Shown: in pieces, positions 49,701 to 61,700 of the stretch
Numbering within the stretch: the first letter of the stretch is position 1
How the letters are laid out: each line of letters opens with the position of its first letter
Assembly: GCF_013167455.1 (NCBI RefSeq)
Contig: NZ_CP038328.1
Strand: one strand, 5' to 3'
From: Escherichia coli O157:H7
GTDB lineage: Bacteria > Pseudomonadota > Gammaproteobacteria > Enterobacterales > Enterobacteriaceae
Length of the DNA stretch: 64,000 nt
Made by a program: the position numbers

Positions 49701-52700
49701 CTCTGAAGAATATTACTAAAGTTAAAAAGTAATCCGATTTAAATATCGAGTCTCCTTGTTTCGACTTAAGCTGGCAATTGGATTGCCAGCTTTCTTTTAA
49801 CGCATTGAAATTACCTGAGTAAATAACGCATTCATGTCTTCAGGTTTTTATATAGCGTCTGGAGACATGGATATTTATGCAATGTAATCAACGCCAGTTG
49901 CAAAAAAATGAACCCGGATTACTTATTTAACCGCCCATAGCATCAACGCTTACGGAACTCTTTGTTCACTTTCCCACAGCACTTTTAAAACATTAAACCT
50001 GACTACGGAAAATATCAGCCATGATAATGTTTGAAATGGCTAATTTGCCATGGAGTGAAAAAAATTAGATGAAATTCAGTAGGTTGAAATAATCACTAGC
50101 AGGTAATTATTTCAATGATAGTGCGCAATTGATCTACAACACTGCGTAGCGGAGAGAGTATTAATCGGATCATAGTCACATCAAGTGACTATGATCCGGG
50201 TGACAACCGGGATAATTATTGCTGCTTAACGAACAAACTGGCGAAGCTGAACAGGCTGGCGGCGCTAAATATCAGTTCAATTCCCACCAGTGTGGAAACC
50301 AGCGTTACAGACACCATCGGCGTTGCACCAAGGAATATCCAGGCAATGACGATATCCAGCACACCAATAACGAGCTGTAGCCAGCTGCCTTTCATTGAAC
50401 GCTGACGATACCAACTCATCAGGCGAATAACCCCTGCAACACAGAACAAACCGGCAATAAATGCCGCAATGGCAAAAATGCCCAGCTCCGGTGCGCGGAT
50501 GAAGAAATAGCCGATCAATAAATAGGCGACTGCGACGAGGAAACCGGATAATACCGGCCAGAAATTATGACTGCGGTTGCTGAATAATCCAACAATAAGC
50601 GCAATGCCCGAACAGATTAATAATGCACCTACTACTGTGCTTAAAATATCGCCAGAAACGAACGGGAAACTGATACACAGCAACCCGACGATAAACAGCA
50701 GCACGGCAATAAACTGGATTGCTCTGCGATGCTTTTTCAGCATCTCCAGATCAAACTTCAAAATTGTTGCCTTATCTATATATAACATAGAACCACCCTA
50801 TAAAATTAAGAAGAAAATCCCCTGCTATCAATCTATGCCAAAAACGCGTCTAAGAATGCAGTCGATTTAATAAAAATTTCCTAATTGCAGTATCTGATGC
50901 ATCTGTAACTCATTGTATTGAAATAAAAATATCTGATTTTGATATTTTCCATCAACATGACATATACAGAAAACCAGGTTATAACCTCAGTGTCGAAATT
51001 GATTCGTGACGGCTCTTTCACTTTATAGTTGAGGATATTACGATGAAAAAAGTATTAGGCGTTATTCTTGGTGGTCTGCTTCTTCTGCCAGTTGTGAGCA
51101 ATGCAGCGGATGCGCAAAAAGCAGCTGATAACAAAAAACCGGTCAACTCCTGGACCTGTGAAGATTTCCTGGCTGTGGACGAATCCTTCCAGCCAACTGC
51201 AGTTGGTTTTGCTGAAGCGCTGAACAACAAAGATAAACCAGAAGATGCGGTTTTAGATGTTCAGGGTATTGCAACCGTAACCCCAGCTATCGTTCAGGCT
51301 TGTACTCAGGATAAACAAGCCAACTTTAAAGATAAAGTTAAAGGCGAATGGGACAAAATTAAGAAAGATATGTAATTCCGGGAATGCGTTACATCGTACT
51401 TCCTTGCATATTGAACAGGCCGGAATATCTTCTTTAAAAGCAGCTATTCCTCCTGTTCATATATAATCTCTATATTGAATGGGTTACAAAATAAATATTT
51501 CATCTCTCCGTAAAGCGTTTATTTTTATGGGCGCTGTAGCGGCTTTGTCACTGGTGAACGCACAATCTGCGCTGGCAGCCAATGAATCCGCTAAAGATAT
51601 GACCTGCCAGGAATTTATTGATCTGAATCCAAAAGCAATGACCCCGGTTGCATGGTGGATGCTGCATGAAGAAACAGTATATAAAGGTGGCGATACAGTT
51701 ACTTTAAATGAAACCGATCTCACTCAAATTCCTAAAGTGATCGAATACTGTAAGAAAAACCCGCAGAAAAATTTGTATACCTTCAAAAATCAAGCATCTA
51801 ATGACTTGCCGAATTAATGAGGTACAAGTAAAAAGGAGTGGCAAGTTGAGCCATCTTGCTGCTCCTTTTTGCATTTTTATATGACAGCAGAATTTATTAT
51901 ACGTCTTATACTCGCGGCAATTGCCTGTGGCGCTATTGGCATGGAAAGGCAAATGCGCGGCAAAGGAGCAGGGTTACGCACTCATGTATTAATTGGCATG
52001 GGAAGCGCACTGTTTATGATTGTTTCGAAATATGGTTTTGCTGACGTGCTGTCTTTAGATCACGTCGGACTGGACCCCAGCCGTATTGCTGCTCAGGTGG
52101 TGACGGGCGTCGGGTTTATCGGTGCAGGTAACATTCTCGTTCGTAACCAAAATATTGTAGGTTTGACGACGGCAGCGGATATCTGGGTGACCGCCGCCAT
52201 AGGTATGGTTATTGGCAGTGGTATGTACGAACTGGGTATTTATGGTTCAGTGATGACCTTGCTGGTGCTGGAAGTCTTCCATCAATTAACCTTCCGCCTG
52301 ATGAACAAAAATTACCATTTACAGCTGACATTAGTGAACGGTAATACGGTATCAATGCTCGACTGGTTTAAGCAGCAAAAAATAAAAACTGATTTAGTTT
52401 CGTTGCAGGAAAATGAAGATCATGAAGTGGTCGCCATTGATATCCAGCTTCATGCCACAACGTCGATAGAAGATCTGTTGCGATTATTAAAAGGTATGGC
52501 AGGGGTGAAAGGCGTTTCAATTAGCTAATCTGTATAGTTATTTATTCGCAGGAGTACCAGTGCGGTACTCCTGTTGCTTTTAATGATCGAGGACGATCAG
52601 TGGTGAATGGTTGGCAGGATCTTTAAGTACGGTAATATCCGCGCCGTAGAGCATTGTCAGCGCCTGCTGTGTCAATACGTCCTGTGGTTTACCATTTGCG

Positions 52701-58700: not shown

Positions 58701-61700
58701 CTCTGGATGGTACCGGACGAACCAACGGTCAGGATGTAAATATGCGTGGCTATGATCATCGCGGCGTGCTGGTTCTTGTCGATGGTGTTCGTCAGGGAAC
58801 GGATACCGGACACCTGAATGGCACTTTTCTCGATCCGGCGCTGATCAAGCGTGTTGAGATTGTTCGTGGACCTTCAGCATTACTGTATGGCAGTGGCGCG
58901 CTGGGTGGAGTGATCTCCTACGATACGGTCGATGCAAAAGATTTATTGCAGGAAGGACAAAGCAGTGGTTTTCGTGTCTTTGGTACTGGCGGCACGGGGG
59001 ACCATAGCCTGGGATTAGGCGCGAGCGCGTTTGGGCGAACTGAAAATCTGGATGGTATTGTGGCCTGGTCCAGTCGCGATCGGGGTGATTTACGCCAGAG
59101 CAATGGTGAAACCGCGCCGAATGACGAGTCCATTAATAACATGCTGGCGAAAGGGACCTGGCAAATTGATTCAGCCCAGTCTCTGAGCGGTTTAGTGCGT
59201 TACTACAACAACGACGCGCGTGAACCAAAAAATCCGCAGACCGTTGAGGCTTCTGAAAGCAGCAACCCGATGGTTGATCGTTCAACAATTCAACGCGATG
59301 CGCAGCTTTCTTATAAACTCGCCCCGCAGGGCAACGACTGGTTAAATGCAGATGCAAAAATTTATTGGTCGGAAGTCCGTATTAATGCGCAAAACACGGG
59401 GAGTTCCGGCGAGTATCGTGAACAGATAACAAAAGGAGCCAGGCTGGAGAACCGTTCCACTCTCTTTGCCGACAGTTTCGCTTCTCACTTACTGACATAT
59501 GGCGGTGAGTATTATCGTCAGGAACAACATCCGGGCGGCGCGACGACGGGCTTCCCGCAAGCAAAAATCGATTTTAGCTCCGGCTGGCTACAGGATGAGA
59601 TCACCTTACGCGATCTGCCGATTACCCTGCTTGGCGGAACCCGCTATGACAGTTATCGCGGTAGCAGTGACGGTTACAAAGATGTTGATGCCGACAAATG
59701 GTCATCTCGTGCGGGGATGACTATCAATCCGACTAACTGGCTGATGTTATTTGGCTCATATGCCCAGGCATTCCGCGCCCCGACGATGGGCGAAATGTAT
59801 AACGATTCTAAGCACTTCTCGATTGGTCGCTTCTATACCAACTATTGGGTGCCAAACCCGAACTTACGTCCGGAAACTAACGAAACTCAGGAGTACGGTT
59901 TTGGGCTGCGTTTTGATGACCTGATGTTGTCCAATGATGCTCTGGAATTTAAAGCCAGCTACTTTGATACCAAAGCGAAGGATTACATCTCCACGACCGT
60001 CGATTTCGCGGCGGCGACGACTATGTCGTATAACGTCCCGAACGCCAAAATCTGGGGCTGGGATGTGATGACGAAATATACCACTGATCTGTTTAGCCTT
60101 GATGTGGCCTATAACCGTACCCGCGGCAAAGACACCGATACCGGCGAATACATCTCCAGCATTAACCCGGATACTGTTACCAGCACTCTGAATATTCCGA
60201 TCGCTCACAGTGGCTTCTCTGTTGGGTGGGTTGGTACGTTTGCCGATCGCTCAACACATATCAGCAGCAGTTACAGCAAACAACCAGGCTATGGCGTGAA
60301 TGATTTCTACGTCAGTTATCAAGGACAACAGGCGCTCAAAGGTATGACCACTACTTTGGTGTTGGGTAACGCTTTCGACAAAGAGTACTGGTCGCCGCAA
60401 GGCATCCCACAGGATGGTCGTAACGGAAAAATTTTCGTGAGTTATCAATGGTAATCATCTGCCCCGATATTTCGGGGCATTTATCTGGAAGGAAGAGAGA
60501 CAATGAACCACTACACACGCTGGCTTGAGTTAAAAGAACAAAATCCCGGAAAGTACGCGCGTGACATCGCAGGGTTAATGAATATTAGAGAAGCAGAACT
60601 GGCATTTGCACGCGTCACGCACGATGCGTGGCGGATGCACGGCGATATCCGTGAAATTCTGGCGGCGCTCGAAAGTGTTGGCGAAACCAAATGTATTTGT
60701 CGTAATGAATATGCAGTCCATGAGCAAGTTGGTACGTTCACAAACCAGCATTTGAACGGACATGCCGGATTGATCCTCAATCCGCGCGCGCTGGATTTAC
60801 GTCTGTTTCTCAATCAATGGGCCAGTGTTTTCCACATCAAAGAAAACACGGCTCGTGGCGAACGCCAGAGTATTCAGTTCTTTGATCATCAGGGCGATGC
60901 ATTACTAAAAGTTTATGCCACCGACAATACCGATATGGCGGCATGGAGTGAGCTTCTGGCACGGTTTATCACCGATGAGAATACGCCGCTTGAGTTAAAA
61001 GCCGTTGATGCGCCAGTTGTTCAAACGCGAGCCGATGCCACTGTGGTCGAGCAAGAGTGGCGGGCGATGACCGACGTTCATCAGTTTTTTACGTTGCTCA
61101 AGCGCCACAACCTGACGCGCCAACAGGCGTTCAATCTGGTGGCAGACGATTTGGCCTGCAAAGTATCCAACAGTGCGTTGGCGCAAATTCTTGAATCTGC
61201 ACAGCAGGATGGTAATGAAATCATGGTGTTTGTTGGCAACCGTGGCTGCGTACAGATTTTCACCGGTGTGGTAGAAAAAGTGGTGCCAATGAAAGGTTGG
61301 CTGAATATTTTCAACCCGACGTTTACTCTTCATCTATTAGAAGAGAGCATTGCTGAAGCCTGGGTTACCCGTAAACCGACCAGCGATGGCTACGTAACCA
61401 GTCTGGAATTGTTTGCCCATGATGGTACGCAGATAGCGCAACTTTATGGTCAACGTACAGAAGGCGAACAGGAGCAAGCGCAATGGCGTAAGCAAATTGC
61501 TTCGCTGATACCGGAAGGCGTTGCTGCATAACGTATAATTAACGGGAGGTCTGGCTATTTATTGCTGGGCCTCTTTATATTGATCAATCGTTCACACCAG
61601 ATAATCAATATGCTGATGGCGTACCAGCTCATTGATCCGCTTAAGATTGAGGATCATCATGATATTGTGTTTATGGCAGTAGAACGTTTTTAGCGATATT

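Follow-up and report, generated by a model that had tools for sequence, protein, structure and literature searches.

The haem transport locus called shu in Shigella dysenteriae and chu in Escherichia coli, reportedly described by Torres and Payne in 1997 and by Wyckoff et al. in 1998, is the closest known counterpart of the locus analysed here, which lies in a stretch of 64,000 nucleotides from the E. coli O157:H7 contig NZ_CP038328.1 (the window). The window holds the same eight genes in the same order, on the same strands and at the same site between yhiD and dctR (yhiF), together with the same Fur boxes and the same chuA and shuT leaders, and we saw no difference from the described locus, known in O157 as an O-island with chu in the acid fitness island. 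Since the system is a textbook case of virulence-associated iron acquisition and chuA is a standard marker in E. coli phylogroup typing, its presence in O157 adds nothing new. Related genes are found in two operons of other genera, namely a hemP-hemR-hemS-hemT-hemU-hemV operon of the Yersinia hem/hmu type and an operon of the order receptor-T-W-X-Y-U-V, which is related in content to the Vibrio hutWXZ and Plesiomonas hug loci. In strain EDL933 the acid fitness island also has chuSA and chuTWXYU and measures ~22 kb, compared with ~13 kb in MG1655 (PMC9144400). Eight additional haem genes inside the island have been described for O157:H7 and E. albertii, with Wyckoff et al. 1998 cited as the source for the locus (PMC5799925).

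We are highly confident in reading this as the known chu locus and an old resident of the acid fitness island, assembled from two operons and most likely lost in one event by K-12 and other chu-negative E. coli. To call it an island inserted relative to K-12 is misleading; a more fitting picture is that of ancestral Escherichia DNA lost by the lineage of K-12.

Gene coordinates were taken from the RefSeq annotation of a 100%-identical O157 record and checked against a mechanical list of open reading frames (ORFs), which matches RefSeq except at chuV and chuT. The eight chu genes and their two neighbours are as follows.

51881-52528, plus strand: yhiD (MgtC/SapB family), left flank common with K-12 (RefSeq; NF007431, 401.7 bits against a cut-off of 214).
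52580-53350, minus strand: chuV, ATPase of the haem ATP-binding cassette (ABC) transporter (RefSeq; NF010068, 394 bits against a cut-off of 261).
53347-54339, minus strand: chuU, haem ABC transporter permease of the FecCD/BtuC type (RefSeq ShuU/ChuU).
54388-55011, minus strand: chuY, anaerobilin reductase (RefSeq; PDB 5FFQ/5GUY, E 5e-135).
55011-55505, minus strand: chuX, cytosolic haem carrier of the HutX family (TIGR04108, 209.8 bits against a cut-off of 110).
55518-56855, minus strand: chuW, radical SAM methyltransferase of anaerobic haem degradation (TIGR04107, 567 bits against a cut-off of 400).
56875-57789, minus strand: chuT, periplasmic haem-binding protein (RefSeq ShuT; PDB 2R7A, which is ShuT, E 9e-161 over residues 49-304).
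58472-60454, plus strand: chuA, TonB-dependent outer-membrane haem/haemoglobin receptor (TIGR01785, 588.7 bits against a cut-off of 316.85; PDB 9DIR/9DHE/3FHH).
60503-61531, plus strand: chuS, cytoplasmic haem-degrading protein, a hematinate-forming haem oxygenase (RefSeq; PDB 4CDP/1U9T, E 1e-233).
61592-62122, minus strand: dctR (yhiF), right flank common with K-12 (RefSeq).

RefSeq gives the order hdeD, hdeA, hdeB, yhiD, haem ABC ATPase (chuV), shuU/chuU, chuY, hutX (chuX), hutW (chuW), shuT/chuT, chuA, chuS, dctR and slp. ORFs, RefSeq and the gene order from tblastn agree on two divergent transcription units, chuA-S on the plus strand and chuT-W-X-Y-U-V on the minus strand. None of the eight ORFs is seen to be truncated or frameshifted, and their products are identical to the RefSeq reference proteins. 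For chuV, a maximal ORF of 307 amino acids that extends to 53503 was rejected in favour of 52580-53350. NCBIfam equivalog or subfamily models for ChuV, ChuW, ChuX and ChuA all scored above their curated cut-offs; for ChuU the top NCBIfam matches were BtuC/FecCD-type permeases under the cut-off, and no equivalog cut-off was passed. Solved structures are matched near-perfectly by ChuS, ChuY, ChuA and ChuT (4CDP/1U9T, 5FFQ/5GUY, 9DIR/3FHH and 2R7A, E 1e-133 down to 0), the ChuA/ShuA chains covering residues 29-660 of ChuA. With 2R7A for ChuT, NF010068 for ChuV and RefSeq for ChuU, these three proteins would form an ABC importer dependent on a periplasmic binding protein.

Judged from these matches, 52534-61590 is the already known chu locus for taking up and using haem, called shu in Shigella. 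The earlier note had listed the eight genes with their strands and overall span, and all of them are present as listed and align to Chu/Shu proteins. It had also recognized the known chu/shu locus at its yhiD-dctR position inside the acid fitness island, in agreement with the RefSeq order and with published accounts (PMC9144400, PMC5799925). This position corresponds to the 78.7-min region of K-12. Over the 12.5 kb around the locus the identity to chromosomes of E. coli O157 is 100%, and yhiD and dctR are not adjacent; the window comes from a chuA-positive O157-type strain and, as had been proposed, not from K-12.

A base-by-base comparison with the K-12 locus (L002) shows that O157 and K-12 correspond up to 52533 (…TAATCTGT) and again from 61591 (TTCACACC…), and the flanks of K-12 are 98.6-100% identical to O157 right to the junction.

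52534-61590, 9057 bp: DNA present in O157 and not in K-12, which has the 35-bp spacer GTGGCAGCGTAGCCAGACTCACCGTAAGCCTGAAA instead.

The yhiD and dctR genes of K-12 are convergent, with 41 nt from stop codon to stop codon. Because 9057 bp in one strain stand against a 35-bp spacer at the same site in the other, the difference is a replacement and not a clean insertion or deletion. The span of 52580-61531 previously given for the island holds for the genes, not for the distance from junction to junction.

To place the two states in E. coli, 5426 complete genomes were surveyed, 5421 of which match the region. The chu segment is present in 2234 of them and an empty junction in 3179; in this sporadic distribution among strains the locus resembles an island. 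Nearly all empty junctions (3173/3179) have the K-12 spacer. The remaining six carry the variant GTGGTAGCGAAATCACACTCGCCACCCTACTGGAAA, seen at 401-442 of L083 (NZ_CP169309.1) and in five further complete E. coli genomes.

For the genus, one genome per GTDB species was scanned for ChuA, followed by tblastn with all genes. The locus was found complete and at the corresponding site in E. albertii and in the representatives of two further divergent Escherichia species (L037 and L058). Nucleotide identities to O157 are given below for these and for a B2 strain of E. coli.

E. albertii: chu genes 87-91%, flanks 84-93%.
L037: chu genes 89-95%, flanks 85-93%.
L058: chu genes 89-93%, flanks 91-95%.
B2 E. 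coli strain: chu 94-98%, flanks 97-99%.

Divergence of chu thus runs in step with that of the flanking acid-resistance genes across Escherichia lineages. Moreover, an internal deletion scar in chuT, described below, is common to all chuT-bearing Escherichia lineages compared (E. albertii, L037, L058 and E. coli). The shared site, the co-divergence with the flanks, the common scar and an ordinary GC (guanine plus cytosine) content together argue for old residency, with the K-12 state arising once and later. These comparisons indicate that the locus has been resident at the site since before the split of E. coli and E. albertii; any insertion into the acid fitness island, if it ever happened, would predate that split. 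Since one empty junction recurs in 3179 of the 5426 genomes, loss in the K-12 lineage appears more likely than gain in O157, and a single event most likely removed the entire 9 kb from K-12 and the rest of the chu-negative E. coli. The word 'inserted', which had been applied to the locus in the earlier note, is therefore apt as a description relative to K-12 only; as a statement of recent gain by O157 it conflicts with the same site in E. albertii and the two further lineages, with the co-divergence and with the GC content.

Other states of the region were also seen. E. albertii (L047, NBRC 107761, ~4040-4100) lacks yhiD, as has been reported (PMC5799925), and also the hairpin that follows it in O157; there the 3' end of chuV lies immediately next to the terminator of hdeB. 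Escherichia sp. MOD1-EC7003 (L003) has only chuA-chuS between yhiD and dctR. In this third state of the locus (5883-6531), chuTWXYUV and the chuT promoter are missing and chuA-chuS-dctR are intact, with a half repeat at the yhiD-side joint and a full repeat inserted upstream of chuA, both of which we take, judging by primer sequences, to be like the enterobacterial repetitive intergenic consensus (ERIC). A metagenome contig (L094) has slp-dctR-hdeB-hdeA, with a DctR 73% identical and neither yhiD nor chu.

Several observations weigh against a loss by K-12. The direction of the difference between K-12 and O157 is inferred from distribution and co-divergence and is not proven. No significant similarity was found between the 35-bp K-12 spacer and any part of the chu segment, so that the spacer is not a recognizable deletion scar. 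The variant spacer is homologous to the K-12 35-mer yet ~30% diverged in its six genomes, with flanking coding sequence ~98.5-100% identical. E. fergusonii has an acid fitness island in which yhiD and dctR are adjacent without chu, as also reported (PMC5799925). Finally, the type genomes of E. fergusonii, E. marmotae, E. ruysiae and E. whittamii were not among the ChuA matches of the one-per-species scan, and the distribution in the genus is therefore patchy.

Candidate scars were considered and rejected. Scores of the K-12 spacer, in both orientations and against five versions of the locus, were at the level of shuffled sequence, and an apparent inverted match to the chuS terminator and a direct match suggested by MAFFT were set aside on the same grounds. 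Scores of 15-16 were reached by the variant spacer, but the positions matched were unrelated coding ones and p was ~0.025 before correction.

The alternative that survives best, which we still consider unlikely, is that both states are old alleles: the empty junction would descend from an acid fitness island in which chu was never present, E. fergusonii being an example, and would have reached the A/B1/C lineage of E. coli by homologous replacement instead of a new deletion. The adjacency of yhiD and dctR in E. fergusonii (PMC5799925), a K-12 spacer unrelated to chu DNA and the existence of this spacer in two forms ~30% diverged all fit such a history, and it is kept as a minor rival for these reasons. 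Against it, the E. fergusonii island is very diverged and is located at another chromosomal site, and its 73-nt yhiD-dctR spacer has no clear homology to that of K-12. This island (L092, CU928158.2) lies beside uxuA/uxuB/uxuR and encodes a DctR 61% identical; its different site and its lack of haem genes are on record (PMC5799925). Furthermore, the K-12 flanks are so nearly identical to those of O157 (98.6-100%) that no imported tract is visible.

Loss from an old resident locus also has to be weighed against recent gain, in which O157 or its phylogroup would have acquired a horizontally transferred pathogenicity island at a K-12-like yhiD-dctR junction. A gain of this kind would be in line with the presence of the locus in just 2234 of the 5421 genomes matching the region, with the clean difference of the two states at the same two points and with the mobility of the receptor-T-W-X-Y-U-V module elsewhere (with integrase and relaxase in Salmonella, at varied sites in Citrobacter and Klebsiella). 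The traces expected of a mobile island are missing, however. No transfer RNA (tRNA) gene was detected in the 64-kb window by ARAGORN, no integrase, transposase or other mobility gene is annotated across it, and a search for direct or inverted repeats pairing the two ends returned only 8-10-nt matches, the best end-to-end match being 8 nt. That no integrase, tRNA or direct repeats flank the locus, as the earlier note had observed, was borne out by all three comparisons. The base composition does not deviate from that of the host either. In the GC comparison of segment and flanks that had been set beforehand, the chu segment was E. coli-typical (50.2% GC, with 47-60% at third codon positions, and 50.5% for the window) and the flanks, at 37-46%, were atypical; the AT-rich part is the acid fitness island around the segment. 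The locus sits at the same site in E. albertii and the two divergent lineages, at a divergence matching the flanks, and within E. coli chu has diverged as much as or more than its flanks, the opposite of what recent spread would give. Classical tRNA-linked pathogenicity islands, such as the locus of enterocyte effacement (LEE) at selC, are like the chu locus in strain-variable presence and virulence-associated function, but chu lacks a tRNA, an integrase and direct repeats, and its base composition does not deviate. Taking both sides together, we consider a recent gain very improbable.

The idea that the cluster is decayed or non-functional in this strain hardly deserves credence: its sole oddity is the 9-nt deletion that removes the original internal start codon of chuT, against eight full-length ORFs that are identical to RefSeq and span solved structures end to end, intact regulatory elements and a receptor-derived ATG that is the start used in experimental shuT work (PMC5458455).

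The two parts of the locus have different relatives. In Citrobacter, Kluyvera, Enterobacter, Leclercia and Buttiauxella, the hemP-type operon has the receptor and S genes adjacent and in the same order as chuA and chuS, with products 78-88% identical to ChuA and ChuS, and the last ~65 nt before chuA are also conserved in its leader. For the hemP-A-S-T-U-V operons of Citrobacter, Kluyvera and Enterobacter, the receptor is 84-88% identical to ChuA and S 78-85% identical to ChuS. Their T, U and V proteins reach 31-37%, ~60% and ~50% to ChuT, ChuU and ChuV, and W, X and Y are absent from these operons; relatives of ChuW at 83-87% occur in the same genera. The hemP-type operon contains hemP and continues on the same strand with TUV, whereas Escherichia has neither hemP nor TUV downstream of chuS. 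No hemP remnant was found upstream of chuA in Escherichia.

The genes on the minus strand resemble the second operon. In Citrobacter it is separate from the first and lies between cueR and copA, where a 714-residue TonB-dependent receptor is followed by T-W-X-Y-U-V, with identities to the Chu proteins of 80% (T), 86% (W), 87% (X), 78% (Y), 88% (U) and 78% (V). A Klebsiella sp. has a receptor-T-W-X-Y module near dsbD, without U and V. Across Citrobacter, Klebsiella sp. and some Salmonella, the order T-W-X-Y-U-V is the same as in chu and the proteins are 78-88% identical, and what E. coli retains of the receptor gene in front of chuT is its promoter, its Fur-box region and the initial ~29 codons. 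The operon differs from chu in its chromosomal sites (cueR-copA, near dsbD, or an integrase/relaxase element) and in its receptor of 710-716 amino acids, which is absent in Escherichia, where ChuA is used; this receptor is no more than ~30% identical to ChuA over its N-terminal ~200 residues.

In Salmonella enterica L090 (GCA_015834215.1, 1001-21338) the receptor-T-W-X-Y-U-V operon stands next to dsbD among genes for a phage-type integrase, a TraI_2 relaxase, a UvrD-type helicase, ArdC and CbtA-like proteins. From its gene content this region looks like an integrative mobile element with anaerobic haem-utilisation genes. Since the module occurs at differing sites, and beside mobility genes in Salmonella, it is clearly mobile elsewhere.

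A trace of the composite origin lies at the start of chuT.

57703-57850, minus strand: receptor-gene remnant, comprising the promoter and 5' untranslated region (5'UTR; 57790-57850) and the first ~29 codons, fused in frame to chuT (blastn).

Starting 61 nt before the ATG and reaching to codon ~29, the 5' region of chuT aligns by blastn to the 5' end of the receptor gene, whose product has 710-714 residues in the genera matched (E 5e-21 for Klebsiella sp., 1e-16 for Citrobacter), and past codon ~29 the homology jumps to the start of the T gene. The N-terminus of ChuT, MPRIITRPFLFSPLTLCISAVASAA, matches the receptor signal peptide MLPRINQRPFILSALTLCMSGAASA, after which comes the original T signal peptide KKLFTAVLALSWAFSVTAA, expected to be cleaved off before ER. 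The Met at which T originally started is kept in E. albertii, L037 and L058 (…KRSSMKKLF…); in E. coli a 9-nt deletion removes it. As the Met was lost with these 9 nt, E. coli chuT depends on the receptor-derived start. This is the same ATG that served as the start codon in experimental shuT work (PMC5458455).

A history that would fit these relationships starts from two operons, hemP-chuA-chuS-hemTUV and receptor-T-W-X-Y-U-V, which Citrobacter and its relatives have kept apart to this day. Of these, the first would have lost hemP and hemTUV. From the second, an in-frame deletion would have removed the receptor and left the promoter, Fur box and signal peptide of the receptor gene driving chuT. 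We regard it as probable that the locus is an ancient chimera of two haem systems, in which ChuT took over what a deleted receptor gene had left behind (promoter and Fur box, the leader with its thermometer, the start codon and the signal peptide) and so acquired tandem signal peptides, that its own start codon was then lost in E. coli proper, and that K-12 and phylogroups A, B1 and C became chu-negative later, by loss. No description of a fusion or remnant of this kind was found in a limited literature search. The chuT regulatory region, which has been studied for Fur and temperature control, would on this account be inherited from a vanished receptor gene; that a Fur site lies, unusually, inside the 5'UTR and that the leader peptide is long and double could be explained in this way.

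Both transcription units start from the chuT-chuA intergenic region (57790-58471), which measures 682 bp and has 38% GC. A consensus scan of the whole 64-kb window found six sites with at least 14 of 19 positions matching the Fur box, three of them in this region.

57813-57831, minus strand: Fur box of chuT, 16/19, at +1 to +19 of the chuT transcript (consensus scan).
57819-57837, minus strand: second, overlapping Fur-box match of chuT, 15/19 (consensus scan).
58164-58182, plus strand: Fur box of chuA, 17/19, overlapping the predicted chuA promoter at 58144-58172 (consensus scan).
58443-58474, plus strand: shuA/chuA 5'UTR RNA thermometer over the ribosome-binding site and start codon (Rfam RF02597, 60.1 bits against a gathering score of 58; identical to the consensus).

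A second RNA thermometer has been published for the shuT leader; when the locus was scanned permissively with Rfam, the one of chuA was the only match. The box at 57813-57831 coincides in position and in number of mismatches with the experimentally defined shuT Fur site, which spans +1 to +19 with three mismatches on a transcript that starts 42 nt upstream of the ATG (PMC5458455). As far as sequence matches go, Fur boxes would thus be present at both promoters and a thermometer in the chuA leader.

The intergenic region evolves much faster than the adjoining genes, with 88.5% identity between O157 and the B2 strain and ~80% between Escherichia species. Its two ends, of ~60 nt each, are the sole parts with recognizable homologues in other genera, and the central ~550 nt are AT-rich.

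Based on these regulatory elements and on established knowledge of the Chu/Shu proteins, the locus would work as follows. Under iron limitation, Fur would leave the two boxes in the divergent region, and chuAS and chuTWXYUV would be transcribed in opposite directions. At 37 °C, the RNA thermometer in the chuA leader would open the ribosome-binding site. ChuA, powered by TonB, would carry haem across the outer membrane, ChuT would take it through the periplasm and ChuUV would pump it into the cytoplasm. There, ChuS would free the iron; under anaerobic conditions, the radical-SAM enzyme ChuW would do so together with ChuX and the anaerobilin reductase ChuY.

Three hairpins were found by terminator scanning and folding.

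52549-52573, plus strand: perfect hairpin with a 10-bp stem and a 5-nt loop, CAGGAGTACC-AGTGC-GGTACTCCTG, followed by TTGCTTTTAAT (terminator scan and folding).
60460-60479, plus strand: GC-rich 8-bp hairpin between chuA and chuS, terminator- or attenuator-like (terminator scan).
61544-61575, plus strand: terminator of chuS, a 12-bp hairpin and a T-rich tail (-20.5 kcal/mol, z -3.85).

The first of these, which had been taken to mark the yhiD-side junction, is real (-20.5 kcal/mol; z -3.2 on the plus strand and -4.7 on the minus strand against shuffles), but it sits 16 nt inside the strain-specific DNA and not at the junction itself. Because it is followed by TTGCTTTTAAT on the plus strand, it reads best as an intrinsic terminator and is most likely that of yhiD; possibly it also stops chuV transcription arriving from the opposite side. 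It is kept in B2 E. coli, L037 and L058, and is gone together with yhiD in E. albertii. The chuS terminator is conserved across Escherichia, with four additional loop bases in the O157 sequence of the alignment. The chu-specific DNA thus carries the proper terminators of both yhiD and chuS, which we count as a point for a single loss; folding of the K-12 spacer did not exceed the level of shuffles. A search for homologues of the yhiD-side hairpin and of the chuS terminator in the sequence that follows the V or S gene of Citrobacter and Salmonella found none.

Elsewhere in the window, bcsQ of cellulose biosynthesis (11777-12529, plus strand) has an internal stop and is annotated as a pseudogene in the O157 record that is identical to the window. 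Rfam matches above the gathering threshold are the small RNAs GadY (42809-42922, minus strand) and ES205 (48701-48772, minus strand, between mdtE and gadE) and the antitoxin RNA rdlD (7562-7627, minus strand), which adjoins ldrD. Downstream of slp, a hypothetical gene on the minus strand from 63198 onwards is intact in O157, with 1116 bp in the reference record; the K-12 copy (L002, 4678-6102) is truncated and frameshifted beside a copy of IS5. B2-type genomes depart from O157 at about 63023 onward.

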